Positions 10,956 through 30,735 of a stretch of 64,000 nucleotides of DNA are shown piece by piece; position 1 is the stretch's first letter, and the number at the start of each line of letters is the position of its first letter. Origin of the DNA: a virus (taxonomy: Duplodnaviria; Heunggongvirae; Uroviricota; Caudoviricetes); the IMG/VR virus record IMGVR_UViG_2721755710_000007, positions 11,410-75,409 of that record; one strand, given 5' to 3'. The translations under genes and the position numbers were made by a program. Below the pieces are notes generated by a model. It saw only the letters and a list, made by a program, of their open reading frames with translations, was not told where the DNA came from and searched no databases.

Positions 10956-12887
10956 TTATGCGTATTGTTGGATGACGGCCAGAACGTCCGCCACGTTGTG
11001 TTTTGTCTCGATAATCCACCAGTTGCCCGGGAAATCGCTGTTCTTCGCCTTCGCTGGCAGCCAGCGAGCGCCGAATTTTTCCTTGATTGCGTCTTTAGCA
11101 CGGAAAAGAACGCCTTTCATGCCGGACGCCTCCTGAAGCCCAAATACCTCACCAGCGGCGAATTTTGGTGCGTACATCATCTTCAGGTCGGCGGTGGATA
11201 CGCGATAATTCAGACCAAGAGACTGAGCTATGCTGGTGGCATCACCCTGTATTGATGATAACTCTTCTTGTTTCTCGTTTCTGGCGGCAATTTCTTCCTC
11301 CGTGATGTTGCCTAGGGCCAGGTTTATCCGATCAGCGTCGGCCTGTTTCTCTTCATCGGTGCGCCCGGCAAGAACCGTGTTAATTCTCTGCAATATCTCA
11401 ACATGATTCTTGCGCATGCTAAGCAATTCCGGCGTAACCTCGTTAAGGTCCACCAGCCCAAGGATGGCAAGGTCGGAAAACATTGATACCAGGTTGTAGG
11501 TCATGCGATAGCTGAGTTGCCCATAGGCTGATGGCAACTGCACCGCATCCATTTGATAGGCATCCATAAATTTAGAGCCGTCGTTTACGACATCCGCAAT
11601 TGCCGGTGTGATTTTCCCTGTGGTGGCGGCCTCCCTGATTGCTGTTACCCACGATTGAGTCAGCGCGGCGACTGCATGATTCAGATTGGCTTTCCGTTCT
11701 GCTGCAATACGCGCGCTTGCAGCGTCCATTGCCTGCTTGATCTCGTCTTTATTGCTGTAAATGCCAATGGTGCCAAACTGTGCTGTGGTGATCTCATAAT
11801 CTGACGCCCGGAACTCATGGGTACCGAAAATGGCATTGGTGACCTCAAGTTCAGAATCCCCGTTACGAGTAGCCCCCTGGCTTGTTTTCTCCGGCATTCT
11901 GGCGATCGCATCCGCTATTGTCTCCTGAATTGCTTCAGGGGATAGCGTATCTCCGTATGACGCGATTACTTCGCCATAATTGGAGCCAAACAGTTCAGTC
12001 AGGAATACTTCTGCCAAACGGACCTGGCGGTTATTCCCTTCCGACATCATACCAAGCACCCATTTTGCAATTGACGACTTCAGCGCGCCGTCACGGCGAT
12101 CCGGGTAAACCGCATGCTTCAGTGGGTCCGTATAGGTACCAACAAAATCAATGCTATAGCCTGACTCTGTAGTCTGAACGCCGTATGAGTCAGTGATTTT
12201 GATCATGCCGCGCTGCTGGAAACGGTAGAAATCGTCACAGGAAATGATGTCGTTAATCCCGGCGATGGAGACGCCACCACTGATTTTCTGCATAACAGCA
12301 TCTTCATCGGGAGTTACATCCACCTGTTTATCCAGCGTCTTCACATCCCAGTTACCCGATTTGGTGCCTTTGAAGGTAAAGATGATCTCCACGTCTGCGC
12401 GCTGGCTGTCGAAGTCCAGCGACTTAATGCGAACGATATCACCGGCACAATCGTAGTATTGGCCTACACGCCATGAGCGATCGCCGATAACAAGGAACTC
12501 ATTCGCATGGTTAACCAGATCAGGATCAACATCCAGAATGCCTTTATTTATTGCATCCTCCACCAGCGGGCGCAGGCGTTTGATATCCGTCGCGGCCTTC
12601 TGAGTACGGTTCAATAATTTCTCATAGCGGGAGATGGCTTGAGTGATATTAGCCTTGCGCTGAATGGCGCTTTTCAACGACGCGCGATAATGTGCTAACA
12701 ACGTACGGTCTGTGTGATGGACGCTACCCCAGCGGGCCTTCCAGTCTGCATTATCAGCTGCTTTGGCCATTAACTGGAGTGCCATCAGTACCAAGAACAG
12801 GAGCACCTCCCACGCTAATAGACTGGCCCCCTGAATCTCACCGTTCTGAAACCACAACAAAAAAACATCAGGAATAAAAAACACCAC
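10956..12887 (-). CDS. hypothetical large protein (up to 643 aa), first gene of operon; true start probably internal (Met codon at 12785 or 12770)
   Basis: Long ORF; codons 17-23 are encoded by an IS2 IRL remnant so the annotated N-terminus is doubtful; no Walker or methyltransferase motifs seen. Confidence 0.5.
   Translation of the reverse strand: MVFFIPDVFLLWFQNGEIQGASLLAWEVLLFLVLMALQLMAKAADNADWKARWGSVHHTDRTLLAHYRASLKSAIQRKANITQAISRYEKLLNRTQKAATDIKRLRPLVEDAINKGILDVDPDLVNHANEFLVIGDRSWRVGQYYDCAGDIVRIKSLDFDSQRADVEIIFTFKGTKSGNWDVKTLDKQVDVTPDEDAVMQKISGGVSIAGINDIISCDDFYRFQQRGMIKITDSYGVQTTESGYSIDFVGTYTDPLKHAVYPDRRDGALKSSIAKWVLGMMSEGNNRQVRLAEVFLTELFGSNYGEVIASYGDTLSPEAIQETIADAIARMPEKTSQGATRNGDSELEVTNAIFGTHEFRASDYEITTAQFGTIGIYSNKDEIKQAMDAASARIAAERKANLNHAVAALTQSWVTAIREAATTGKITPAIADVVNDGSKFMDAYQMDAVQLPSAYGQLSYRMTYNLVSMFSDLAILGLVDLNEVTPELLSMRKNHVEILQRINTVLAGRTDEEKQADADRINLALGNITEEEIAARNEKQEELSSIQGDATSIAQSLGLNYRVSTADLKMMYAPKFAAGEVFGLQEASGMKGVLFRAKDAIKEKFGARWLPAKAKNSDFPGNWWIIETKHNVADVLAVIQQYA
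12819..12839 (+). mobile_element. 21-bp IS2 left inverted repeat remnant
   Basis: TAGACTGGCCCCCTGAATCTC identical to the IRL of the intact IS2 at 19645; similarity stops after 21 bp. Confidence 0.6.
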
Positions 12888-14780: not shown

Positions 14781-17700
14781 TCAGAAACGATATTCCACAC
14801 TCAACATGGCAGATGTATTATGGTATCCATGTTCTCCAAGTTGAATGCCTGCATCAGCCCGGAATGCTACTTCTGGTGTTATCATTCCCACAACACCACC
14901 ATTTATTTCTCCGATATCACGCGCACCATCCTGGTATATACTTACACCATTCATACTGGTGCCGAAAACACGACTATTGTGCAACCAGTGTGCCTCCACA
15001 AATGGTCTGAACGGAACCGCATACCGCGTATTTTTACCGTTTTTGCTGGTAAGCCATGTTCTTGCTCCCAGGCGGGTGAGAATATTTCCGTTACCGGTAT
15101 TTTCAATACTGGTTCCGTTACTTTCATGATATTTGTCTGATTTTACATTCATCCGGACAACCTGAAGCTGCGGCTGAACATACCATTCATGACTTCCCTT
15201 GTAATTGTCGGTAAACTCTCCAGCCTTCCATGAATATCCTGCTTCCAGAGATACCGTAAACCCTTTTGACTTCCATGACTCAGCAGGCAGCCGTTCTCCA
15301 TTTATATGATTATCAAACCAGCTGTATTGCAGCCAGCTATCAAGATAAGAACCATTGTGTGTTTCATCATTGGCATACCATGTTGCATAAAGACCCGCTG
15401 TGTATCCATTCATTCTTCCTTCCGAATGGTATCCGGTGCTCAGGGCATTCGTACTGTTATTATTATGACCATAGCCAGCCATCATACCTGTATGCCAGCG
15501 ATCGGTACCATTCAGGCTCCACTGAGCTATATCTCCCCCTATTAACACAACGTAGCTATTCCCCCGGGTTCTCAGCTGACTACTGTTGTCACGCCAGCGA
15601 TTATGTTTTCCTTTATTATACATCCAGATACCTGCTTCATTTTCTTCTCCTGTCATGTGGCTGATATACAACTCCTGTCCCTGTCGTTCATACAGATTCG
15701 TTACAAACAGATTATTTGCAGCAGCAATACTGGCAACATAGCTACCTGCCTCAGGACGCAAATTATTATCATGGTTTTCCGGTACAGCTTCAGGTTGTGG
15801 TACAGGAATGTCTTTTCTGCTAATCAGATACCAGTTAGTGCTGTTAATCCCCTGACCACGTTTCAGTATGTAATCATAAGCTCCGGCTGTAATACGTTCC
15901 GTCTGAATGAATTCAGCATTATCAGCATTGCCACTGACGTGAATCACTTCAATCCCATTAAGTGTCTCTGCACCAGTACCACCGGCCTGAGTAACAGCGA
16001 CACGGGTACGGCCACTGGCATTACCTTTAATCACCAGACGATCTGTTTTCGAATTGTCACCACCTGTTTCTGTCTGGAGGAGAATAAGTCCATTTCTGCC
16101 AGTGTAATTCCCTCCGACAGTCAGTATATTACCCGGCATATATGTAGTGAGATCGACTATACCACTATTGCTCAGATTTCCTGCAACGCCCCCAAACCCG
16201 GAGAGTTTGCCCTGCTCTTCAACAATGACCTGGTTACTGCCGAGCATCACCGGTGAATCTGCGTTCCCCAGTATCACTGTCCCCTGAATAATATCTGTCA
16301 TCCCGGTCCATTTTGCGTTATCGCTAATGTTCAGTGCACCTGCTCCCGTCTTGCGAACATTACCATAACCACTGATATTGTTGGTAAGCTGCCATGCTGA
16401 TGTACTGTTCAGAGTTAATGTGCCATAGTTATCAACAAAGGCTGTCCCCAGATTATCAGCCGTGGATACAGCCAAATGAGCCCCCTTATTCACGGTAAAA
16501 ACACCGGAAAAATTACGATTATTACCCGTTATATCAAGCATTCCCCCATTTATGTTCAGAGAACCATCCCCTGCAATAGTACCTGCAGATTCTCCTCCAT
16601 TATTCAGTATCAGGCTTCCGCCATGAATGTTCAGCACAGAGCCTGCAGCCGTCAGTAGTTTGCTTATTGTCTGAGGATACCCATTCATATCCAGTTCTGC
16701 GCCACGGGATAAATATAAATACTCAGTCCGACCAAGAGCATCAGGTGCAGCAAGAATTAATACGCCAGATTTAACCTCTGTATTTCCTGTATAATTGTTT
16801 GTTGCAGAAAGTATAAGAGTACCATTACCTGATTTTGTCAGACTTTTGCCGTCCCAGCCATCATATAATAAAGGTGAAAGATTATCGGAAAGAGAAACAC
16901 CTATGTTCAGAGTGGCATCTTTTTCTATATTAAAGGTTCCATATCCCATGCCTTTTGTATTATTCCATCTCAGCATGGAGATCAGTTTGTTATCGTCGTC
17001 ATTTAAAGACGTATAAACATAACTTTCAGCACCTTCTGTCAGTAATACATTGTATTGTACAATGTGACTATTATCAGCGATCGAGATACCTGTGTCTGAC
17101 GACAATAATGTGTAATAGTCCTGAGTCCAGTTCTTAATTGATGTGTCTATATTAAGCCATGAATCACTTTTTAATGTAATAGTATTTGCGTGAACATTAG
17201 CATTTCCTACAGACAGGTTCATAGATGCGTCTTCATCAATACTTATATTTCCGTTAAAAATGGAGTTCTTGCCTGACAGATAAACAGATGAGCCATTCCC
17301 AATCATTAGCCCACCATTAATTGCTGTTGCGTTATTGATGTTTTTAATAATTAATTCATTTGTACCATTAACAGGTATACTAGCTAGTTTAATATCACCA
17401 TTAATCACAGAATCTGAATAAATATCTAATGAATTATACCCGCCAGAAAAAATTATTGATGTATTATAAGCATCTTTTTGGCTATTATATAATCCTGAAA
17501 GATTACCATGATTATTAATATGGATATCTTCTCCATAAACAGAGCAACCACCGTCGGGGCCATATCCCCCCTGAACAATACCGTTATTATTCAAAGTGAT
17601 TTGATTTCCAGAAATAGCATCTCCCCCTTGTTTTATTCCATATCCTCCAGATATCATGTTGTCGTTAGTAATGAAAAGATTACTACCATTAATACCATCA

Positions 17701-18278
17701 CCACCGTTTACGCCATTACCGCCCAATATTCCTCCGGAATTATGCACTGTAATATTGCTACCGGTTACACCGGAACCACCTGTCCCACCTACATCATCAC
17801 CTCCGTATATACTTCTGTAATTATCAACTATAATATCATCCCCGCTTAACCCTGCACCTCCGCTACTTCCTGAGCCACCAAGACCATTACCCCCATATAC
17901 ATTTCTGTAATTGTTTATAGATATTTTGTTGCCACTAACAGCAATTCCACCATTATATCCATCTCCTCCCCAAACACTACCATTATTATTTAGCGTAAAG
18001 TTTTCACCGTAGACACCTGCACCACCGATTGATGTATTGCTTGTTCCTCCTTTGATGTTAATACTGCTTTCAACAGATAGTATATTTTGAGTATAACTTG
18101 TTTTATACGGCACGCTGATATTAAGCGCCGCGTTTCCATCAACACCTGTAATACTCCTGGTTATACTTTTAGGTATACCATTACCATTCAGTTGTATTGT
18201 TTGCGCACCAGAAAAATGAGACTGCACAGAATAAATTATACTGACCAGAAATTGTAAAATTCGTATATTCTTATTCAT
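14781..18278 (-). CDS. autotransporter adhesin (AIDA-I/TibA/Ag43-like)
   Basis: 1165 aa; signal peptide, glycine-rich ~19-aa passenger repeats, C-terminal beta-barrel ending ...SVEYRF; AT-rich. Confidence 0.75.
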   Translation of the reverse strand: MNKNIRILQFLVSIIYSVQSHFSGAQTIQLNGNGIPKSITRSITGVDGNAALNISVPYKTSYTQNILSVESSINIKGGTSNTSIGGAGVYGENFTLNNNGSVWGGDGYNGGIAVSGNKISINNYRNVYGGNGLGGSGSSGGAGLSGDDIIVDNYRSIYGGDDVGGTGGSGVTGSNITVHNSGGILGGNGVNGGDGINGSNLFITNDNMISGGYGIKQGGDAISGNQITLNNNGIVQGGYGPDGGCSVYGEDIHINNHGNLSGLYNSQKDAYNTSIIFSGGYNSLDIYSDSVINGDIKLASIPVNGTNELIIKNINNATAINGGLMIGNGSSVYLSGKNSIFNGNISIDEDASMNLSVGNANVHANTITLKSDSWLNIDTSIKNWTQDYYTLLSSDTGISIADNSHIVQYNVLLTEGAESYVYTSLNDDDNKLISMLRWNNTKGMGYGTFNIEKDATLNIGVSLSDNLSPLLYDGWDGKSLTKSGNGTLILSATNNYTGNTEVKSGVLILAAPDALGRTEYLYLSRGAELDMNGYPQTISKLLTAAGSVLNIHGGSLILNNGGESAGTIAGDGSLNINGGMLDITGNNRNFSGVFTVNKGAHLAVSTADNLGTAFVDNYGTLTLNSTSAWQLTNNISGYGNVRKTGAGALNISDNAKWTGMTDIIQGTVILGNADSPVMLGSNQVIVEEQGKLSGFGGVAGNLSNSGIVDLTTYMPGNILTVGGNYTGRNGLILLQTETGGDNSKTDRLVIKGNASGRTRVAVTQAGGTGAETLNGIEVIHVSGNADNAEFIQTERITAGAYDYILKRGQGINSTNWYLISRKDIPVPQPEAVPENHDNNLRPEAGSYVASIAAANNLFVTNLYERQGQELYISHMTGEENEAGIWMYNKGKHNRWRDNSSQLRTRGNSYVVLIGGDIAQWSLNGTDRWHTGMMAGYGHNNNSTNALSTGYHSEGRMNGYTAGLYATWYANDETHNGSYLDSWLQYSWFDNHINGERLPAESWKSKGFTVSLEAGYSWKAGEFTDNYKGSHEWYVQPQLQVVRMNVKSDKYHESNGTSIENTGNGNILTRLGARTWLTSKNGKNTRYAVPFRPFVEAHWLHNSRVFGTSMNGVSIYQDGARDIGEINGGVVGMITPEVAFRADAGIQLGEHGYHNTSAMLSVEYRF

Positions 18279-18325
18279 ACTGTTTTTTCTTTAGTGATGC
18301 ATTTTTTATCAACCTGGATTTGCCC

Positions 18326-19231
18326 CTATATTTCCAGACACCTGTTATCACTTAACCCATTACTGGCTTGCTGCCGTAGATATTCCCGTGGCGAGCGATA
18401 ACCCAGTGCACTATGCGGATGCCATTCGTTATAATGCTCGAATGCCTCTGCAAGGTTCTTTGCTGCCGTTAACCCGTCTGGTTTGGGCATGACACTGATG
18501 TAGTCACGCTTTATCGTTTTCACGAAGCTCTCTGCTATGCCGTTACTCTCCGGACTCCGCACCGCCGTGTTCTTCGGTTCAAGCCCCAACATCCGGGCAA
18601 ACTGCCGTGTTTCATTAGCCCGGTAGCATGAACCATTATCCGTCAGCCACTCTACTGGAGACGCCGGAAGCTCGTTGCCGAAACGGCGTTCCACCGCTCC
18701 CAGCATGACGTCCTGTACTGTTTCACTGTTGAAGCCGCCCGTAGTGACCGCCCAGTGCAGTGCCTCACGGTCACAGCAGTCCAGCGCGAACGTGACTCGC
18801 AGTTTTTCTCCGTTATCACAGCGGAACTCGAACCCGTCAGAGCACCATCGCTGATTACTTTCTTTCACAGCCACTCTGCCGGTATGTGCCCGTTTCGATG
18901 GCGGTACAGCGGGTTTTCGCTCAAGCAACAGCGCATTCTGGCGCATGATCCGGTAAATACGTTTGGCATTGATCGCAGGCATACCATCAAGTTCGGCCTG
19001 TCTGCGAAGCAGCGCCCATACCCGACGATAACCATACGTGGGCAGCTCTCCGATAACATGGTGTATACGGAGAAGCACATCCGTATCATCTGAGTGACGG
19101 CTGCGGCGACCATCTTTCCAGTCATCGGTTCGTCTGAGAATTACGTGCAACTGCGCACGCGACACCCGGAGACAACGGCTGACTAAGCTTACTCCCCATC
19201 CCCGGGCAATAAGGGCGCGTGCGCTATCCAC
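18326..19231 (-). CDS. insD: IS2 OrfB transposase
   Basis: 301-aa IS3-family integrase-core ORF. Confidence 0.9.
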
Positions 19232-19554
19232 TTTTTTGCACGCCCGTATTCAACGGCTTCTTTAAGGAGTTCATTTTCCATCGTTTTTTTGCCGAGCAGG
19301 CGCTGGAGTTCTTTAATCTGCTTCATGGCAGCAGCAAGTTCAGAGGCAGGAACGACCTGCTCTCCTGCGGCCACAGCAGTAAGACTTCCCTCCTGGTATT
19401 GCTTGCGCCAGAGAAATAACTGGCTGGCTGCCACACCGTGTTGCCGGGCAACAAGGGAGACCGTCATTCCCGGTTCAAAACTCTGCTGAACAATAGCGAT
19501 CTTTTCCTGTGTAGTACGCCGTCTGCGTTTCTCCGGTCCTAAGACATCAATCAT
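19189..19554 (-). CDS. insC: IS2 OrfA
   Basis: Starts [24 protein letters not shown]; overlaps OrfB as in IS3-family frameshift arrangement. Confidence 0.85.
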
Positions 19555-19759
19555 CTGCTCTCCAATGACTAGTCTAAAAACTAGTATTAAGACTATCACT
19601 TATTTAAGTGATATTGGTTGTCTGGAGATTCAGGGGGCCAGTCTAATTTATTATAGAGTATATATATGTACTGCGTTTAAATCATGAAGACGACAACCTG
19701 TTTTACATAAATTATTCCTAAGTATTTTTCCAGAGAAGACCTAGGTATAATGATGTGCA

Positions 19760-20527
19760 GGTAATGACTCCAACTTATTGATAGTGTTTTATGTTCAGAT
19801 AATGCCCGATGACTTTGTCATGCAGCTCCACCGATTTTGAGAACGACAGCGACTTCCGTCCCAGCCGTGCCAGGTGCTGCCTCAGATTCAGGTTATGCCG
19901 CTCAATTCGCTGCGTATATCGCTTGCTGATTACGTGCAGCTTTCCCTTCAGGCGGGATTCATACAGCGGCCAGCCATCCGTCATCCATATCACCACGTCA
20001 AAGGGTGACAGCAGGCTCATAAGACGCCCCAGCGTCGCCATAGTGCGTTCACCGAATACGTGCGCAACAACCGTCTTCCGGAGACTGTCATACGCGTAAA
20101 ACAGCCAGCGCTGGCGCGATTTAGCCCCGACATAGCCCCACTGTTCGTCCATTTCCGCGCAGACGATGACGTCACTGCCCGGCTGTATGCGCGAGGTTAC
20201 CGACTGCGGCCTGAGTTTTTTAAGTGACGTAAAATCGTGTTGAGGCCAACGCCCATAATGCGGGCAGTTGCCCGGCATCCAACGCCATTCATGGCCATAT
20301 CAATGATTTTCTGGTGCGTACCGGGTTGAGAAGCGGTGTAAGTGAACTGCAGTTGCCATGTTTTACGGCAGTGAGAGCAGAGATAGCGCTGATGTCCGGC
20401 GGTGCTTTTGCCGTTACGCACCACCCCGTCAGTAGCTGAACAGGAGGGACAGCTGATAGAAACAGAAGCCACTGGAGCACCTCAAAAACACCATCATACA
20501 CTAAATCAGTAAGTTGGCAGCATCACC
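19760..20527 (-). mobile_element. IS1 copy 2
   Basis: 768 bp identical in ORF content to copy 1 (insB 19775-20278, insA 20197-20472); no 9-bp duplication. Confidence 0.95.
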
Positions 20528-20563
20528 CTTAAGAAGATCGCCCTGAAATTCATCAAATAATCC

Positions 20564-21286
20564 TTAGCGGCGTTTACCAGACAGTTCCGCAGCAATATAA
20601 GCCTGCACGCTTTTGTACTGTTTTACCTTTTCGATAAACTCATCGGGACTGTAAGCACCTTTTACACGACGGGATACGTTAAGTGTTTTCTTAACCCGTT
20701 CGATATACATGTTGAGACTTCGAATAATATTGTGCGCCATTACGTTGTAATCGCTAACCGGTAATTGACCCAGAGAGTTGAATTTGTACATCTGGGTCAG
20801 AAGGTTGTTCATTTCAAAGATGTGCTTATAAAAACGCATTGTATTTTGATTGTTGAAGTTTAACTGGACCGATTCAAATCGGAACGGAGAAAACTCAGTT
20901 GATGAGAAGAATGGATCACTTTCATCAACGTGAATAGTGGCGATATGATGTTCCAGATTCTCCTTCATTAAATTATTTTCGTCGTGCAATTCATTAAACC
21001 AGTCCTGAATTGCCTGCACCAATTCGGGGTGCCTTACCGCATTAACCGTCCTGAATAATGATGAAATAGCAATACTTACATCATCAAAGCCTCTAATTAC
21101 GGAACGATTCCGAGCCGTAAGGAAACGGTTAAAATCGGGAGTACCTGGCTTAATGGTTACTGTGGCCATGCCGTAAAGTTCATTTTTACTTTGCACGACT
21201 TTTCGGGTATTGTCAGATGCCTGAGAGGTGCGGGCATTTACATCAGGAGTTTTCTGCTCGGTTTCATTTATTGATACGTCGGTCAT
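20564..21286 (-). CDS. hypothetical 240-aa protein, second gene of two-gene operon
   Basis: ORF; start overlaps upstream gene stop by 4 bp; no recognised motif. Confidence 0.5.
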   Translation of the reverse strand: MTDVSINETEQKTPDVNARTSQASDNTRKVVQSKNELYGMATVTIKPGTPDFNRFLTARNRSVIRGFDDVSIAISSLFRTVNAVRHPELVQAIQDWFNELHDENNLMKENLEHHIATIHVDESDPFFSSTEFSPFRFESVQLNFNNQNTMRFYKHIFEMNNLLTQMYKFNSLGQLPVSDYNVMAHNIIRSLNMYIERVKKTLNVSRRVKGAYSPDEFIEKVKQYKSVQAYIAAELSGKRR

Positions 21287-21768
21287 TGTGCCACCTCATA
21301 TTTTGAGTATTTACGGATTTTCCGTCCCAGTTTGATATATGCAGCATGATAGAATTCAAGTAATTCTCTGTAGGGTTCCAGTAATCCCTCCGTTTTTTCG
21401 ATCATTTCATATTCCCAAGACGCGTGATTAACAAAGCAGCTTTTTGAATATTTTCCGTTTTTCATCGCAGAAACCCGTTTCGACATATAGCTGGGTGCCC
21501 TGGTTTTAAACGGACTGAACTTATGCCAGGTGATAGTGACTTTTTTCGCATTACCAATTAATTCTAGTTTCGGTGCATACGAACCCAGATACTCACGTTT
21601 TAGTGTATTGCTAGGCCGGGGTAAATTAATCTCCAGATGATTCCGTTCTTTCCACTCGATCCAGTAATTTGTACACAAGTCTTCAGCCTCCTCCCGCAGA
21701 GCCTCGATTTGTGAACGCATTAAGCTGCGCGATAATTCAAGTGACTTTATTAGTTTCGAATTAGACAT
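21283..21768 (-). CDS. hypothetical 161-aa protein, first gene of two-gene operon
   Basis: ORF; lysine-rich; no recognised motif. Confidence 0.5.
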   Translation of the reverse strand: MSNSKLIKSLELSRSLMRSQIEALREEAEDLCTNYWIEWKERNHLEINLPRPSNTLKREYLGSYAPKLELIGNAKKVTITWHKFSPFKTRAPSYMSKRVSAMKNGKYSKSCFVNHASWEYEMIEKTEGLLEPYRELLEFYHAAYIKLGRKIRKYSKYEVAQ

Positions 21769-22035
21769 GTGACCTCCTGATGTGAAATCACTATACCGAA
21801 GTGGTTTTTATTTTTTTTCACAAACAGGACTTTTTTCAGTGATTTTTTTCTGAGAATTATGAGGGGCGTGTCGTTGGTGCGATGCATACCGATAGTGAAT
21901 AACACCAGATGAGCTCGGGAACGGCATAGCGGGGTGTACTTATGTTCGGCAGAAAAGTAGCTTTTTCTGCAATGGGTATTCCTGATCCGGTGATTTGAAA
22001 AGTGCTGTTTTACTTACTAAGTTATACATATATCT

Positions 22036-22197
22036 AGTGCCACTTTTTAATCAAAAGTGACCCTAGGTTTTTTGCGCATAGTGCCACTTTTTAAAAAAGT
22101 GACCCTATGTCCTGTCTACATAGGGTCACTTTTCACAAAGAAGTGACCCTATGTCGAGGCTCCATAGGGCCACTTTTCAGCAAAAAGTGACCCTATG
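22036..22197. repeat. array of eight copies of a ~14-bp motif (AAAAGTGACCCTATG) in alternating orientation
   Basis: Copies at 22036, 22054, 22080, 22097, 22121, 22141, 22163, 22185 forming four or more inverted-repeat pairs. Confidence 0.8.
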
Positions 22198-22780
22198 TAA
22201 TAGCCATTGTTAATCAATCGGAAAAATATTCATGCTAGCTCGCTCTTATCGCTAAGGTTATTGCTGCTTTCTGCCGATAACAGTGCAAGTTTTGCGATTT
22301 TTTTAAGCGCTTCACAGTTCGTTAGCAAGCTCAGTTTTTTTTGATAAAATTCTGGTCAGTTTGTTTAAAAAGTGTTACAAGTAAGGCGAATGGTTGAATG
22401 GTTAGTTTTAAGACTCAAATCGGCAGTATTAAAATTCCAAAAGTAGCTTTTCATACTTCAAAAAACCAAACTTTAATTTCATGTAGAAGAGTTGTACTAT
22501 TGTATTGACTCAAGGACAATCCGACATGTCAGAATCAGATAACATAACGCGTAACTATTACGTACCGAGGTTTCGATTATTCGTAGTTACCGTGCATTCC
22601 TAATGTTATTGCCTATCCATGATCTTCTTCGTATCAATCAGGGTCTCCACTCTTGCAACGCCGTCTATTTGGAGACGGATTTGGGACAATGACTGATAAT
22701 GCATTTGAAGTTGAAACTCGTCCGGGAAGTTTCCTCGTTCCACGTTCTTTAGGCAAAGAGATTTCCTGGGATAATTTTTT

Positions 22781-23311
22781 ATGGCTGTTGTCGATGGTGA
22801 CACTAACGTTATTCGAGAATATGACAGTGACGATGCTGACTTCGGTATTTACAATGCTGGGGAAAAAGTTACTTTACTGTGTGGCCGGGAAGACTTTTAT
22901 AATCCGACAAAAATTCAGCAGTTACGCTCTAAGTGTGTAGATATACAAAATGATTACTTTATTCAAATCTTCTTTATGTCAATGCTTGCACCTGAGTTTG
23001 TCAGCATATTTTTTGGATTAAAGCCTGCCACCGCAGATGCAATAAAAGATGTTGGCGTTTCATCACTTAAAGCAATTAACGATGTTGTTCTCTTTCCGCG
23101 AACAATTGCCTTTACGCCAGGACTGGGGGATGATAGCACTACGTTAAAATCTAAAGTATTCGCCAGGGCATACGAATTATCTGCCGACATTCGTTTGGGT
23201 AAAGTTAGTGATGACTTAATGGAACTACTGCGTTACGACACTATGTTTACGTGTCACCGTCAGGATGTGTTTAACTCATTAGCAAATAAAGTGCTCTTGA
23301 AGGATTATTGA
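22781..23311 (+). CDS. hypothetical acidic 176-aa protein
   Basis: ORF only; stops 7 bp before IS1 copy 3. Confidence 0.3.
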   Translation: MAVVDGDTNVIREYDSDDADFGIYNAGEKVTLLCGREDFYNPTKIQQLRSKCVDIQNDYFIQIFFMSMLAPEFVSIFFGLKPATADAIKDVGVSSLKAINDVVLFPRTIAFTPGLGDDSTTLKSKVFARAYELSADIRLGKVSDDLMELLRYDTMFTCHRQDVFNSLANKVLLKDY

Positions 23312-23317
23312 ATATGG

Positions 23318-24085
23318 GGTAATGACTCCAACTTATTGATAGTGTTTTATGTTCAGATAATGCCCGATGACTTTGTCATGCAGCTCCACCGATTTTGAGA
23401 ACGACAGCGACTTCCGTCCCAGCCGTGCCAGGTGCTGCCTCAGATTCAGGTTATGCCGCTCAATTCGCTGCGTATATCGCTTGCTGATTACGTGCAGCTT
23501 TCCCTTCAGGCGGGATTCATACAGCGGCCAGCCATCCGTCATCCATATCACCACGTCAAAGGGTGACAGCAGGCTCATAAGACGCCCCAGCGTCGCCATA
23601 GTGCGTTCACCGAATACGTGCGCAACAACCGTCTTCCGGAGACTGTCATACGCGTAAAACAGCCAGCGCTGGCGCGATTTAGCCCCGACATAGCCCCACT
23701 GTTCGTCCATTTCCGCGCAGACGATGACGTCACTGCCCGGCTGTATGCGCGAGGTTACCGACTGCGGCCTGAGTTTTTTAAGTGACGTAAAATCGTGTTG
23801 AGGCCAACGCCCATAATGCGGGCAGTTGCCCGGCATCCAACGCCATTCATGGCCATATCAATGATTTTCTGGTGCGTACCGGGTTGAGAAGCGGTGTAAG
23901 TGAACTGCAGTTGCCATGTTTTACGGCAGTGAGAGCAGAGATAGCGCTGATGTCCGGCGGTGCTTTTGCCGTTACGCACCACCCCGTCAGTAGCTGAACA
24001 GGAGGGACAGCTGATAGAAACAGAAGCCACTGGAGCACCTCAAAAACACCATCATACACTAAATCAGTAAGTTGGCAGCATCACC
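23318..24085 (-). mobile_element. IS1 copy 3
   Basis: 768 bp; insB 23333-23836, insA 23755-24030; same orientation as copy 2; no duplication. Confidence 0.95.
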
Positions 24086-25559
24086 TATCAATGGCCTGGG
24101 CAATACTTTCCGTCGAAAATGATTGCAACATATTGCCGATATCCTCAAATCCAAGTGATTTGAGAGCCTCACCAATGGCGCTGCTAATACCAGATACCAG
24201 TCCCCCCATATCAAGAACATTAGCTAACGTATAAGCGGCTTTTTGCTGGAATGATGGATCTTGTCCTGATTTAAGCCCAAACGCTCGACGTTGCGCTTCT
24301 GTATCATTCCAACCGGTTACCGCATCATAAATACCTCCAGCCACTGTGCCGACTAGGGGAATTGCGCGTAACGCCCCTTTACCAACTGCCTTTAATCCAA
24401 GTTTACCTGCTGCCCGGGCAGCCAAATCTCCGCCTTCATGGGCGAGAGTCTTCTTGCCACCACCGCGTAGCATTCCTACAAGTTTCTTTGCCCCCAGAGC
24501 GCCAAAAGCGAGTGCTCCAGCTTTTTTCAGCATGCCACGCCCCATTAACAACGACGCGACGCCACCGGCCCCCTTCCCTAACAGGCTAAATAGTTTGGAC
24601 AGCAAGCCGCCCTTCTTTTTCCCGGTGTTTTTGGCTATCTGATCAAGGGCACGGAGAATCTTGTCATTGCCCTCTTTAATTTCGCTGGTCTGCTCCTGAA
24701 GTTCCTGAACCGTCCGTTTTTGGGTGTTAACCTGAACGACATCGGCACTATTTTGCGATTTACGCCTAAAAAAACCTTTTCTACGGCTGTTATCGTCGTT
24801 GCCACGAATCACATCGGCAATAGACTTTCTGGCACCATTAAGCGATCCACCAACTTCTTTTGATATCCCGCCAAGCTCCTTCCCTGCTGCCCACAATGGA
24901 CCAGCAACGGCATAACCTAACGCATCGACGGCACGAGTCTCTGAAGGGTTACCTATGCCTTCAGCTACTTTTGACAGTTTTTTTAATAAACCTGATTCAG
25001 CATTTAGACGCTCATCATCCTCTTTGCGCCTGGCCTTTTCAGCACGTTCAGCACGGGCATCTTCCGCTGCGGCCTTACTCCCTGACTTTCCAATAAAACG
25101 ACCACGCGCATCGCGTTGGTTTTGGCTTTTTTGCGCACCGCCTTTTTGACCGAACATTTCGCGAGCGTGTTCGGCTGCTTCGGTCCGTTGCGCCTTTACA
25201 TCTTCTGTTATAGCCTTCTTGCGTCGTTTTTTACCCTTTCGCGTAGTTGATTTGGCCTGCGGTTCCTGTAGAGCAACATCCTCCTGAACTACACGAGAAA
25301 CGTCCCCTAAATTAAGCCGTTTCATTGCCTCAACAATAGGGTCCACTGATGGCGCATTGGCCACAAAGTCTGGCCGGGAATTTTCGATTGTGCGATTTAA
25401 TGCCGACACACTGCGAGAGACAGGATCAACTGTAGCAACTCGCCCACCTTTCAAATCTTCAACGGCTTCCCGAATACCTGCAAGCTCTTCCAGCTCTTTT
25501 GCGCTGGCGGTTTCAACCGTCCTTATCACATCGTCAATGTTGGCGTTTTTTCTTTCCAT
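24081..25559 (-). CDS. Gly/Ala/Lys-rich phage structural-like protein; 3' end abuts IS1 and may be truncated
   Basis: 492-aa ORF whose stop codon lies inside the IS1 terminus. Confidence 0.45.
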   Translation of the reverse strand: MERKNANIDDVIRTVETASAKELEELAGIREAVEDLKGGRVATVDPVSRSVSALNRTIENSRPDFVANAPSVDPIVEAMKRLNLGDVSRVVQEDVALQEPQAKSTTRKGKKRRKKAITEDVKAQRTEAAEHAREMFGQKGGAQKSQNQRDARGRFIGKSGSKAAAEDARAERAEKARRKEDDERLNAESGLLKKLSKVAEGIGNPSETRAVDALGYAVAGPLWAAGKELGGISKEVGGSLNGARKSIADVIRGNDDNSRRKGFFRRKSQNSADVVQVNTQKRTVQELQEQTSEIKEGNDKILRALDQIAKNTGKKKGGLLSKLFSLLGKGAGGVASLLMGRGMLKKAGALAFGALGAKKLVGMLRGGGKKTLAHEGGDLAARAAGKLGLKAVGKGALRAIPLVGTVAGGIYDAVTGWNDTEAQRRAFGLKSGQDPSFQQKAAYTLANVLDMGGLVSGISSAIGEALKSLGFEDIGNMLQSFSTESIAQAIDR

Positions 25560-27158: not shown

Positions 27159-27749
<591 letters not shown>

Positions 27750-27805
27750 TTAACAGATTCTACGAGTTGTCATTTGTGACAGTATGCTCGCAATCGTAGT
27801 GATTA

Positions 27806-28345
27806 CTACCACCAACTGCTAGCTTTCTTCTCTCTAGCTTTTCCTTCGCTTTGCAGTAAATCTTTACTTCCTGTAGAAATATTTCTATTTGCATCAGCCT
27901 CAGACTGAATTACATCTGTCTTAGCTGCTCTCTCCTTCAACTCCTGCTCTATAAAATCGTTTTCTCGCTGGACACGAGCCGCTTTTGCTTGCAGTTCGAG
28001 TTTCATGCTTTCGAGTTGCAGCTTGCGAAGCTCATCCTCATAAGCTTGATCTCGCTTCTTGTCATTTGCTAGCTCGGCTTCTCGTTTCGCTCTACGTTCA
28101 TTTTCTGCAGCAACACGCTGTTTTTCGCGTGCAGCAGCGGCAGATGCTGCTTTTTCTCTTCTAATACGTTCAGCTTGTGCTTGTTGGCGAATAAGTTCTT
28201 TTCTGGCATCCTCAGCTTGCTGCTCTTTAGCTCGCCCTTCATTTTCCGCTTGAGCAATAGCAGCAATTTGACTTTGCAACGAGTTAGCCAAGGCAGTGCC
28301 TACACTAAACGTAGAAAAGATTAGAAATAAAATAATTTTATTCAT
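27806..28345 (-). CDS. secreted coiled-coil protein
   Basis: 179 aa; signal peptide then Ala/Glu/Lys/Arg-rich coiled coil. Confidence 0.45.
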   Translation of the reverse strand: MNKIILFLIFSTFSVGTALANSLQSQIAAIAQAENEGRAKEQQAEDARKELIRQQAQAERIRREKAASAAAAREKQRVAAENERRAKREAELANDKKRDQAYEDELRKLQLESMKLELQAKAARVQRENDFIEQELKERAAKTDVIQSEADANRNISTGSKDLLQSEGKAREKKASSWW

Positions 28346-28348
28346 AAA

Positions 28349-28870
28349 TTATTTCTTTTCTGGACAAGTAGCATTTGGCTGAATTCGAGTTTCATTATCT
28401 TTAGTTGAAATAAGCACAGCAAGCCCCGTTGTAAACTGGCATGCTTTACCAACTTGAGTTGAAGTGAACACCTTAGTTCCTTCTTTATAAGTCAGTGAAA
28501 CACCTTCAACAATTGTTTTATCACTAACCAAAGAACCAGCCGCTGCACCAAGAGCCGCACCACCAGTACCGCCAGCTACAGCACCCAGTGTCGATGTGCC
28601 TTTAACATTATAACCGGCAACGCCCCCAGCAACAGCTCCCAGTACCGCACCAAATGTCTGTGCCGCTTCTTTATTAGCTTTATTATCAACTTTCACTTTA
28701 GCTGGAAGCACAGAGATAATATTGACTGTCTTTGTTTCCTGCTTCGAATTCAATTGAGCGGTATCATAAACATCGGCAGCATAATCAGCACCGCTAGATT
28801 GACACCCAGAAAGAAGAATTGCAGATACAACAAGAGCGCATAAAGTATACTTTTTAGACATAAGAATCAT
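28349..28870 (-). CDS. lipoprotein with glycine-zipper region
   Basis: 173 aa; lipobox LSGC; GAVLGAVAGGVAG repeats. Confidence 0.5.
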   Translation of the reverse strand: MILMSKKYTLCALVVSAILLSGCQSSGADYAADVYDTAQLNSKQETKTVNIISVLPAKVKVDNKANKEAAQTFGAVLGAVAGGVAGYNVKGTSTLGAVAGGTGGAALGAAAGSLVSDKTIVEGVSLTYKEGTKVFTSTQVGKACQFTTGLAVLISTKDNETRIQPNATCPEKK

Positions 28871-29379
28871 CCCAGAAAAACAAAAACCGGCGAGAAGTTA
28901 CCACGAGAACGGAAAGTAAACAAGAATACTCCCATTGACTTATATCAAATAATCAACTTTTTATAAGCTATCCCTAACTTATTGTGTATAGCTGAAAAGT
29001 CAGAGATAAGTTCACCATCTGCATTATTTCTTAAGTTAATAGTTTATTGCTAACTTAATTTATGTATCGACTATTGATATCCATCTTAAAGTAACAATAT
29101 CCCTCTGCATTATTTTTCATCACAAATAATACATCTATTGCACTACGCTCACCTGCTCTAATAAATTTGTATTTTTAAGTCGCGAATGCTATCTTTTCGC
29201 ATCATATTGACCTTTTAATCGTTCAGGCTTATAGTTTCGCCGTCGTAGCAAATTCTGCGACCAGGTTTGACAGCCTGAATGATTGTGCGGACAACCGCAG
29301 ATTTCCGATATTGCGGTATTTTTGTGTCCGTTAAACCGCGTTACGCCCAAATTATGGTGGGGCGTGATGGGGAGGCTTC

Positions 29380-29470
29380 GGCCTGCTGGTTTCACAATCG
29401 CCAGTCTGTCAACCCTGTCACGTCCTGCCACCTGTTTGACAGCGGGTAGCAGGTTGTTAAACCTGATTGT
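29380..29470 (+). ncRNA. c4: expected location of c4 antisense RNA (boundaries not determined)
   Basis: Positional inference only: structured non-coding stretch immediately upstream of icd-ant, as in P1 immI. Confidence 0.3.
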
Positions 29471-29482
29471 GAGGCCGTAACT

Positions 29483-29704
29483 ATGGTTAATGCCAATCCT
29501 TGCGCACGCCCAGAATTCATCTGGCGTTTCTATTCCTGTAAAAAACACCACTATCACTTCGTTATCGCAGCAACTGAAGACGAAGCACGCTCTCAATTGC
29601 CTGATGGCCCCTGCATTTTTACTGCCCGTTTTTCAACTAACTCGCGCAATTCACTTAGTTACTGGAGCCTCCCCTTCTCTGCCGACGTTCAGGGGGGTTT
29701 ATGA
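29483..29704 (+). CDS. icd: Icd-like small protein
   Basis: 73-aa ORF whose stop overlaps the ant start, matching P1 icd length and position. Confidence 0.5.
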   Translation: MVNANPCARPEFIWRFYSCKKHHYHFVIAATEDEARSQLPDGPCIFTARFSTNSRNSLSYWSLPFSADVQGGL

Positions 29705-30735
29705 AAACACCTCTCGTCACCCGTAATGAAATAGCCGAAGCGATCGCCTTGCATACTGCCTGTATGCCGACACGGGAGATCCCCGGCGCAATTGCTAACT
29801 ATTTCATGATAACCAGACGTTTTTATACCCGAACAGATAAGGCTGTGATCAACAGGCTACTGATAGCCGAGATCAGGGATTATTTGATTGAACAAGGACG
29901 TCTACGTTACGCAACAGTGGCAGCAGAAATGAGAAAGGAGGCACATAGAATGACCGGTAATAATTTAAATGTTGAAAAACCAGCACCTGTTGCTTCAGCT
30001 ACGCCAGCACCAGCCCTGAATGTCATCCCCAACACCGGAGACACAATCGACAGCCAAACATTGTTGAAGATGGTCAATGAGGCACGGAAATTATGTAGCG
30101 AAAAACCAGTTCGCAACAATGATTTCATTGCCAGAGTTAAGGATGAGCTTGAAGGAGAAACCTACGAAATTTTCGTAGGTCAAAAAAACGGCGCAGAAAT
30201 AGATATTATAACCATGACCTACAAACAAGCCCTGCGAGTTGCCGCGCGCGAGTCAAAAGCGGTCCGCCGTTCGCTGATCGACAAACTGGAAGAATTGCAG
30301 CAGGCAAACTCCCCTACCCCATCGATCCCCCAAACATTACCAGAAGCTCTACGCCTGGCTGCCGAGTTGGCAGAACAGAAAATGCAGTTGGAACAACAGC
30401 TGGTGGCCGCAGCCCCTAAAGTCGATTTTGCCGACCGGGTATCAGCGGCTAATGGAATCCTGATCGGGGACTTTGCAAAGGTCGTTGGACTTAAGCAAAA
30501 CGCCCTTTTCTCATGGTTGCGCCAGAACGGCATTCTCATGGCTTTTGGTGCGCGCAAAAACGTACCGCGCCAGCAGTACATTAACGCCGGGTATTTCACG
30601 GTGAAAGAAGTGGTGCTGGATGATGAAAATGGCTACCAGATACGGCTGACGCCCCAATTAACGGGTAAAGGCCAGCAGTGGTTAACTCGCAAGCTACTTG
30701 ATGCTGGTTTGTTAAAACCAGTAGCAATAGGTTAA
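29701..30735 (+). CDS. ant: antirepressor Ant
   Basis: 344 aa; C-terminal ~135 aa paralogous to KilA C-terminus. Confidence 0.7.
   Translation: MKTPLVTRNEIAEAIALHTACMPTREIPGAIANYFMITRRFYTRTDKAVINRLLIAEIRDYLIEQGRLRYATVAAEMRKEAHRMTGNNLNVEKPAPVASATPAPALNVIPNTGDTIDSQTLLKMVNEARKLCSEKPVRNNDFIARVKDELEGETYEIFVGQKNGAEIDIITMTYKQALRVAARESKAVRRSLIDKLEELQQANSPTPSIPQTLPEALRLAAELAEQKMQLEQQLVAAAPKVDFADRVSAANGILIGDFAKVVGLKQNALFSWLRQNGILMAFGARKNVPRQQYINAGYFTVKEVVLDDENGYQIRLTPQLTGKGQQWLTRKLLDAGLLKPVAIG

Follow-up and report, generated by a model that had tools for sequence, protein, structure and literature searches.

The closest described relatives of the two genes considered here are those of the chromosomal yfgH-yfgI operon of Escherichia coli and, at lower identity, slyB, which encodes a PhoPQ-regulated lipoprotein solved by cryo-electron microscopy (7OJF and 7OJG). 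The two genes lie side by side on the minus strand at positions 27806-28870 of a 64,000-nucleotide stretch, hereafter the window, which covers positions 11,410 to 75,409 of the IMG/VR virus record IMGVR_UViG_2721755710_000007. The first encodes a yfgH-like outer-membrane lipoprotein (upf50.5 in phage P7), the second a yfgI-like protein of the DUF5384 family (upf50.0 in P7).

YfgH has been characterised only in a 2025 preprint. Deletion of yfgH makes cells sensitive to sodium dodecyl sulphate plus ethylenediaminetetraacetic acid and more permeable, and outer-membrane proteins are lost; the gene is strongly induced by depletion of LpxC, LptD or BamA, and its leaky overexpression rescues these same depletions (bioRxiv 10.64898/2025.12.22.696046). 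The deletion is suppressed by clsA mutations, and YfgH pull-downs contain BamA, LptD, OmpF/C/A, LamB and TonB-dependent receptors. Neither slyB nor yfgH complements loss of the other, and their suppressors differ (Mla versus clsA; same preprint). Neither yfgI nor phage copies are mentioned there. Aggravating genetic interactions between yfgH and lptD and, upon loss of yfgH, a lower abundance of outer-membrane proteins (OMPs) and vancomycin-induced bulging have also been described (PMC3219608). The Salmonella Typhi orthologues, srgI-srgL, are under SdiA/acyl-homoserine lactone regulation, and nalidixic acid sensitivity is reported for E. coli yfgI mutants (PMC11619404).

Two exclusion systems complete the comparison. 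In P1 the interval corresponding to the pair holds simC, simB and simA, which confer superimmunity (superinfection exclusion). The sim genes are in one of the eight low-GC regions in which P1-like phage-plasmids vary (PMC9603915), and P1 can do without simABC (PMC10695390). TraT, the surface exclusion protein of IncF plasmids, belongs like YfgH to a chromosomal family repeatedly acquired by mobile elements (PMC11733297) and is proposed to work through altered outer-membrane properties (PMC12658005).

The lipoprotein gene and its DUF5384 partner

Around the gene pair the window is a P7-type member of the P1 family (Punavirus), with 98.4-99.4% identity to phages JL22, RCS47, SJ46 and P7 over 1.8 kb. 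A preliminary description of this DNA, made from its letters without database searches, had announced two adjacent genes transcribed away from immI. Both minus-strand open reading frames and their direction were found as announced, co-directional, with pmgC on one side and the c4-icd-ant block on the other. The proteins are 67% and 48% identical to E. coli YfgH and YfgI respectively. A sensitive DNA search detected ~69% nucleotide similarity to the chromosomal yfgH-yfgI locus, which sits between yfgF/yfgG and guaA, in 5,419 of 5,426 complete E. coli genomes. The identification of the pair as a phage-plasmid-borne yfgH-yfgI paralogue in an accessory slot is secure. These are not chance reading frames, because 11 phage records and about 167 plasmid records contain the same pair with little or no change.

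GenBank has included the genes ever since P7 was deposited, and the P7 record notes their similarity to proteins of E. coli K-12. Our literature searches found no paper tying the P7 genes to the function of YfgH, to a yfgHI module or to other phage-borne copies, and a search on Upf50.0/50.5 returned nothing relevant.

The lipoprotein gene (28349-28861, minus strand) encodes a protein 100% identical to P7 Upf50.5, which GenBank labels 'outer membrane lipoprotein of unknown function'. Its frame runs on to an upstream ATG at 28870, giving 173 residues. The true start is probably the ATG at 28861 (170 residues, N-terminus MSKK), a start shared by the homologues, with GGGATGATTCT(T/A)ATG as a conserved upstream sequence. 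A glycine-zipper lipoprotein had been proposed, and both elements are present. The lipobox L-S-G-C, with Gln as next residue, was read from the sequence (...A-I-L-L-S-G-C-Q; 28802-28813, minus strand; Cys codon at 28802-28804), and its Cys is invariant among 65 homologues. The zipper is a helical hairpin of residues 74-112 (28535-28651, minus strand), which matches Pfam PF05433 weakly, below the cut-off, and aligns with the hairpin of SlyB. In the alignment of homologues G74, G78, G82, G86, G100, G104, G108 and G112 are invariant or nearly so. Like the lipobox and the zipper glycines, two C-terminal cysteines are invariant. The C-terminal portion is a beta region.

A search of the PDB with the single lipoprotein sequence gave nothing. 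The family profile built on the 65 homologues matched SlyB (7ojf_A) with E=1.1e-9, residues 9-163 aligning with 6-154. SlyB 7ojf_A was also the sole significant Foldseek match (E=8e-8, TM-scores 0.54/0.64), the query model being of low confidence. NCBIfam searches returned noise only for both proteins.

Some database labels of these genes are wrong (phrog_1277; records NC_050152, NC_042128, NC_031129 and OR339795). phrog_1277 and the RefSeq annotations derived from it call the lipoprotein a 'DNA methyltransferase'. The phi456 record calls the two products 'minor tail protein' and 'tail tip protein'. None of these labels is backed by domain evidence.

The partner gene (27806-28345, minus strand, 179 residues) starts with an ATG located 3 nt past the stop codon of the lipoprotein gene, and its product is 100% identical to P7 Upf50.0. 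It matches the DUF5384 profile (Pfam PF17358, 3e-43) with 147.8 bits against a cut-off of 25, residues 39-179 covering positions 4-145 of the 145 in the profile. A signal peptide of 20 residues, ending ...T-A-L-A / N-S (28286-28345, minus strand), was read from the sequence; the same 60-nt peptide is annotated in the P7 record. AlphaFold2 predicts one unbroken helix from residue 3 to residue 178, with a predicted local distance difference test score (pLDDT) of 87.6. The mature protein of 159 residues, 41% of them charged, would be ~24 nm long if fully helical. The preliminary description spoke of a signal-peptide coiled-coil protein: the signal peptide stands, while 'coiled-coil' is only partly apt, as the heptad pattern of hydrophobic residues is moderate at ~90-130 and absent at 40-90, where charged residues and alanine abound (Ala/Glu/Arg/Lys).

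Conservation of the partner is high at residues 21-40, a short N-terminal motif, and at 91-179, the C-terminal half; it is low in the charged spacer (41-90). Among six DUF5384 partners compared, the phage protein is 80% identical to that of a second punavirus allele described below, 66-68% identical to prophage-borne copies and 48% identical to E. coli YfgI. The length of the family is tightly held, with an interquartile range of 170-180 residues.

The linkage of the two genes was surveyed at 80 loci, in a collection with one genome per species and with the lipoprotein as query. A DUF5384 gene lies directly downstream on the same strand at 76 loci, and upstream at one more. These loci span Enterobacterales, Pseudomonas, Pasteurellaceae, Aeromonadales-like taxa and Alphaproteobacteria. 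Such a conserved linkage is strong evidence that both products act together.

A replaceable cassette at the sim position

Alignment with P1 delimits a replaceable cassette of 1,376 bp (27778-29153) that contains the pair. P1 similarity ends after GTCATTTGT at 27777, directly after the late promoter LPsit (27757-27776, minus strand; annotated in P7 and P1, conserved with P1). It restarts with TGCTCTAATAAATTT at 29154, inside the C1 operator Oc4 (29152-29168, plus strand; CCTGCTCTAATAAATTT with two mismatches in a pattern search, Op(c4) in the P7 record). The counterpart interval of P1, from LPsit to Oc4, measures 1,511 bp, is unrelated to the cassette and holds simC-simB-simA on the same strand as the pair. 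The location at the sim slot before c4-icd-ant, given by the preliminary description, is thereby confirmed. The comparison with Sim that it suggested gave no sign of kinship: single pairwise BLASTP alignments of both proteins with SimC produced only chance-level matches (best E 0.044 and 5), SimA and SimB being translated and inspected, not aligned. By sequence, the cassette is a non-homologous replacement and not a sim variant. Recombination in the conserved flanks, LPsit and Oc4, is the best explanation of the swap between simCBA and the cassette.

The AT-richness claimed for the two genes proved stronger than announced. GC content is 40.5% in the cassette, 31.8% in its intergenic leader and 48% in the flanks. 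At third codon positions the GC content (GC3) of the pair falls to 0.24 and 0.31, whereas the neighbours pmgC, tub and pmgB have values of 0.47-0.53.

A third type of cassette occupies the pmgC|c4 slot in phage vB_EcoM-Ro157c2YLVW (L176:585-1760), where it encodes two exported proteins of 215 and 158 residues. All the proteins of the three cassette types (SimA/B/C, the Ro157c2YLVW pair and the yfgHI-like pair) carry N-terminal signal peptides. The first 36 residues of the 215-residue protein are residues 10-45 of P1 SimA, a protein of 52 residues; because of this identity P1 SimA may be a truncated remnant of a longer gene. In a Cronobacter IncY P1-like plasmid (L014:5389-6648) the 84%-identity allele of the cassette has an extra gene of 419 codons between the DUF5384 gene and pmgC. 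A nuclease-like domain (DUF559 / REase_MTES_1575) was recognised in its product, so that the same hotspot could hold a gene for defence or addiction.

The cassette may have a promoter of its own. A sigma-70 promoter is predicted at 28895-28923 (minus strand), with TTGTTT and TAACTT separated by 17 nt and, for an extended -10, TG at 28903-28902. In the two-allele alignment the 84% allele has TTGTTT-17-TAGATT with TGa at the same position amid diverged DNA, and the ribosome-binding region is conserved as well. Upstream of the predicted promoter a conserved inverted repeat TTGATATAAGTCAA (28935-28948, minus strand), which aligns with ATTGATATACATCAAT in the 84% allele, is a possible regulator site. 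Pattern searches placed no C1 operator inside the cassette and none overlapping the predicted promoter; Oc4, the sole one nearby, is about 230 bp upstream of the predicted -35. Since no operator overlaps it, this promoter is expected to be independent of C1, and we expect the pair to be expressed from it in the lysogen. PhoP-box, RcsB-box and sigma-E readings of the upstream region, made by eye, were discarded for poor spacing or matches.

Upstream of chromosomal yfgH, at ~40-70 nt, a motif TTTACTTT(T/C)C ... GATCTTAAAT is present in Escherichia, Citrobacter, Pseudocitrobacter and Kluyvera (L003:7895-7965, L096, L099, L124). It is probably the stress-inducible promoter of the host operon. This motif is not clearly kept in the phage cassette, and the upstream regions fail to align convincingly.

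The frequency of the cassette was determined among the 495 P1-like plasmids of PLSDB, defined by a match to pmgC-tub over at least 80% of the query. It replaces sim in about a third of them (roughly 187/495: 167 at ≥95% protein identity and 20 at 84%). A full sim cassette is found in 137 of the 495, and any sim match in 265. The 20 plasmids carry, at the same position, the second punavirus allele, with a lipoprotein 84% and a partner 80% identical to those of the window. Between the two alleles the ratio of nonsynonymous to synonymous substitution rates (dN/dS) is 0.06 and 0.04, values that are approximate because synonymous divergence (dS) is saturated (>1.4). They indicate purifying selection on the two genes. 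Identity in neighbouring pmgC is 99%, and this, together with the saturated synonymous sites, indicates that the alleles were exchanged by recombination and did not diverge in place.

Other mobile elements carry diverged pairs. One is found at the end of a prophage with a P2-type tail, adjoining a tail fibre gene and a gene for a DUF4376 protein. Several assemblies have this prophage next to yecD and E. coli 52F4 has it within ompW; from these two sites the pair is seen to travel with it. A gene with an ORF6N (antirepressor-like) domain precedes the pair there (L175:8066-10075; L009:7159-9076). The prophage copy is rare in complete E. coli genomes (1/5,426), is present in 245 blocks of a large contig collection and has a Salmonella relative. 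Another diverged pair is in a Salmonella contig of 102 kb that resembles a phage-plasmid and also carries genes for a tail fibre, an endolysin and a Rep3-type protein, and a copy of 48% identity is in a Vibrio plasmid. The 7.5-kb ColE1-type mobilisable plasmid pYLMB10c (L013:2947-6042) carries a yfgH-like gene and a yfgI-like gene broken by a stop codon. They adjoin a phosphoethanolamine-transferase gene and IS1, so that two functions related to the outer membrane and lipopolysaccharide (LPS) are linked. A 7.7-kb contig labelled Acinetobacter (L098) gives profile scores identical to those of pYLMB10c for both genes.

The copy of phage TL-2011b (L012) and those of about 60 IMG/VR contigs (L032-L094), at 66-69% identity, were rejected as phage cargo: they are host yfgHI. 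They are boundary artefacts, because the prophage integrates between yfgI and guaA. These 'viral' records carry the host yfgG-yfgH-yfgI at one end and could mislead surveys of phage cargo.

Role of the pair in the carrier cell

The preliminary description suggested superinfection-exclusion or envelope-modifying morons. The second proposal is supported: the pair is accessory cargo in a variable region, homologous to an outer-membrane stabiliser, YfgH, and its partner. We propose that it gives the carrier cell an additional outer-membrane stabilising or remodelling activity of the YfgH/YfgI type, outside the regulation of the host operon, to the benefit of the plasmid-prophage and its host; we put the probability of this at roughly 0.6. 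As to biochemical activity we commit to that of the host module, which would be a SlyB-type assembly of outer-membrane lipoproteins with a long periplasmic helical partner.

The proposed mechanism is as follows. The first product has the lipobox, the glycine-zipper hairpin, the C-terminal beta domain and full-length homology to SlyB. With Gln and not Asp next to the lipidated Cys, established rules predict that Lol would send it to the outer membrane. As suggested by the work on E. coli YfgH and SlyB, zipper-driven oligomers would form rings enclosing patches of lipids and OMPs, and these rings would stabilise the membrane when the biogenesis of LPS or OMPs is disturbed. The second product, according to its sequence and model, would be secreted to the periplasm as essentially one helix of ~159 residues. 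The DUF5384 protein is the obligate operon partner of the lipoprotein across Proteobacteria and may work physically with it, probably as a periplasmic tether or spacer. The pair would be transcribed from its own promoter near 28895-28923 and made in the lysogen. Exclusion of incoming phage could follow from the same envelope activity. Envelope robustness appears to follow most directly from the homology and from the overexpression data obtained with YfgH.

Several points weigh against this proposal. It rests on data from homologues, the phage copy being known here from its genes. SlyB-like rings of YfgH are modelled by AlphaFold3 only and not demonstrated (bioRxiv 10.64898/2025.12.22.696046). 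Confidence in the AlphaFold2 model of the phage lipoprotein is low (pLDDT 58); the model places helices at residues 64-88 and 94-113. For DUF5384, single-sequence and profile searches of the PDB matched no solved structure and a literature search found no paper. A scan with promoter and terminator consensus sequences returned no minus-strand promoter upstream of the pair, so the predicted promoter is a weak, conserved match. The saturation of dS adds to these points. Moreover yfgHI is already present in nearly every E. coli genome searched (5,419/5,426), and it is not evident what is gained from a second copy of 67% identity. Lastly, an exclusion system is what the slot holds elsewhere, and this speaks for a role directed at phages and not for housekeeping.

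This last point leads to the best surviving alternative, a dedicated superinfection exclusion system that would be a functional analogue of Sim. Rings of the lipoprotein, with the partner, would alter the outer membrane or the periplasm and so block adsorption or DNA entry. We regard this as possible, though unlikely. Its targets might be relatives of P1 and P7, or unrelated phages that use OMP or LPS receptors, the action being TraT-like; this too is possible and not probable. The pair lies in the exact slot and orientation of simCBA, and all three cassette types found there encode only proteins with signal peptides. In the prophage with the P2-type tail the pair is at the prophage end beside tail-fibre genes, a typical place of conversion and exclusion genes. 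The proteins pulled down with YfgH include the phage receptors OmpC/F/A, LamB and TonB-dependent receptors (bioRxiv 10.64898/2025.12.22.696046), and TraT offers a precedent (PMC11733297, PMC12658005).

Several points speak against exclusion. Both proteins match SimC at chance level only. None of the models of PADLOC-DB v2 matches either of them at E≤0.1, and SimA, SimB and SimC are also without a match there. Our literature search found no paper linking lipoproteins of the SlyB/YfgH type to phage exclusion. A weak match to the TraT family of Pfam (PF05818, E=7e-5) could be taken in support, but its 23.1 bits are below the cut-off of 31, and Foldseek comparisons with the TraT structures 9e2v and 9fs5 are not significant (E=0.37 and 1.5, TM-scores ≤0.26-0.27). 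Membership of the TraT family was therefore rejected, and TraT is kept as a functional analogy only. The receptor of P1 and P7 is the LPS core and not an outer-membrane protein. It is therefore not obvious how encapsulation of receptors could prevent self-superinfection. The pair is also highly conserved relative to the housekeeping orthologue, with every invariant residue kept, which argues for an unchanged biochemical activity.

A wider version of the exclusion hypothesis is that at least three temperate lineages (the P7-type punaviruses, the prophage with the P2-type tail and the ~100-kb Salmonella phage-plasmid) co-opted a host 'armour' module for generic exclusion or protection at the level of the envelope. 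We offer it as a tentative idea, with the odds against it. If true, the co-opted module, a SlyB-like ring lipoprotein with a ~24-nm helix, would be the phage counterpart of plasmid TraT, and the pmgC|c4 slot would be a hotspot of interchangeable cassettes of exported proteins directed against superinfection.

It is improbable that the pair is a neutral passenger, foreign DNA hitch-hiking in a recombination hotspot by immI with no selected function. In favour of it, sim is a variable region of low GC content that can be lost, yfgHI is already in the host, and in the small ColE1-type plasmid the partner gene is broken by a stop codon. However, about 180 phage and plasmid records have both frames intact and 99-100% conserved, the two alleles of the slot show a dN/dS of about 0.05, and the promoter-like elements and the ribosome-binding region are conserved. 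Independent carriage in at least three phage lineages also speaks against a passenger.

Very unlikely is a spanin-like lysis pair, in which the lipoprotein and a periplasm-spanning helix would fuse or disrupt the envelope at the end of the lytic cycle. The likeness, a lipoprotein gene beside a gene for an exported, long helical periplasmic protein, is superficial. Across Proteobacteria the orthologues belong to a chromosomal core operon outside phage contexts, the lipoprotein, with 150 residues and a SlyB fold, is no short o-spanin, and the helical partner has a cleavable A-L-A signal peptide and not a membrane anchor. The pair is also outside a lysis cassette and has no late promoter upstream, LPsit being located downstream and driving pmgC-sit, and sim, the P1 allele of the slot, has no lysis role. 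That the genes encode virion tail proteins or a DNA methyltransferase is hardly conceivable: this is backed by the labels alone ('minor tail protein / tail tip protein' in phi456, 'DNA methyltransferase' in phrog_1277) and opposed by the signal peptide, the lipobox, the SlyB homology and the DUF5384 membership, by the lack of any such domain in Pfam or NCBIfam searches, by the absence of homology to structural tail proteins, which the preliminary description had named as contrary evidence, and by P1, whose virions are formed in their absence. We reject all three of these readings (spanin, tail protein and methyltransferase).

Surrounding window and comparison with known systems

Left of the cassette are pmgC (27159-27725, PHROG match 1e-102), tub and pmgB. 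Right of it, after Oc4, are the c4-a1b1 targets (29229-29281, Rfam) and the C4 antisense RNA of immI (29350-29435, plus strand; Rfam RF01695, 68.4 bits against a gathering score of 45), then icd (29483-29704), ant1 (29701-30735) and ant2, kilA and repL. Across the whole window the C1 operator consensus has 10 matches with up to three mismatches, against 0.34 by chance, in keeping with a P1-type immunity network that is otherwise intact.

The gene sit, whose product (tape measure / injection transglycosylase) has about 1,140 residues in P1 and P7, is broken after codon 492 (24081-25559). To its left lie two copies of IS1 (23333-24030 and 19775-20472) with a fragment carrying an IncA/C-type mobI gene (21283-21768) between them, followed by a transposase pair of the IS3 family (18326-19599) and a gene for an autotransporter (14781-18278). 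The window therefore looks like an IS1-mediated hybrid plasmid, and its prophage is probably unable to make virions. Plasmid NZ_ON934557.1 matches both the 14781-25559 region and pmgC-tub.

P1-like phage-plasmids are common in E. coli and Salmonella, often with resistance genes. If the cassette supplies extra YfgH/YfgI activity, lysogens could better resist detergents, chelators, bile, serum or membrane-active drugs. Another possible outcome is that other phages fail to infect them. Both effects would matter for the persistence of the plasmids and for phage therapy. In addition, the phage copies offer a natural gain-of-function handle on YfgH and DUF5384/YfgI, two poorly understood proteins. 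A practical by-product is the correction of the misleading 'DNA methyltransferase' and 'tail protein' labels.

Among phage proteins, Llp of T5 and Cor of phi80/N15 are exclusion factors. They are small lipoproteins of the outer membrane whose site of action is the envelope of the infected or lysogenic cell, where both bind a single receptor, FhuA, on its periplasmic side. They are not known to have a glycine zipper, a SlyB fold, a partner gene or a host orthologue. The P1 proteins SimC/SimB/SimA share with the pair the slot from LPsit to Oc4, the orientation, the low GC, the dispensability and the export of the products. They differ in that Sim has three genes and confers superimmunity, whereas the yfgHI-like pair has two.

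TraT and the phage protein are both helix-anchored outer-membrane lipoproteins, and TraT forms rings. The large extracellular ring domain of TraT is however absent from the phage lipoprotein, and TraT has no DUF5384 partner. SlyB shares with the phage lipoprotein the lipid anchor, the glycine-zipper hairpin and the beta domain, over the full length. Identity is nevertheless only about 24%, and SlyB is without a DUF5384 partner gene.

The closest system is E. coli YfgH-YfgI. The phage pair has the same gene order, similar lengths (about 171 and 179 residues in E. coli) and tight spacing, the same lipobox, glycine zipper and two C-terminal cysteines, and the same partner signal peptide and conserved C-terminal half. 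In contrast to the chromosomal operon, which is induced by outer-membrane stress, the phage copy lies in an accessory slot of a phage-plasmid, with another upstream region and a much lower GC3.

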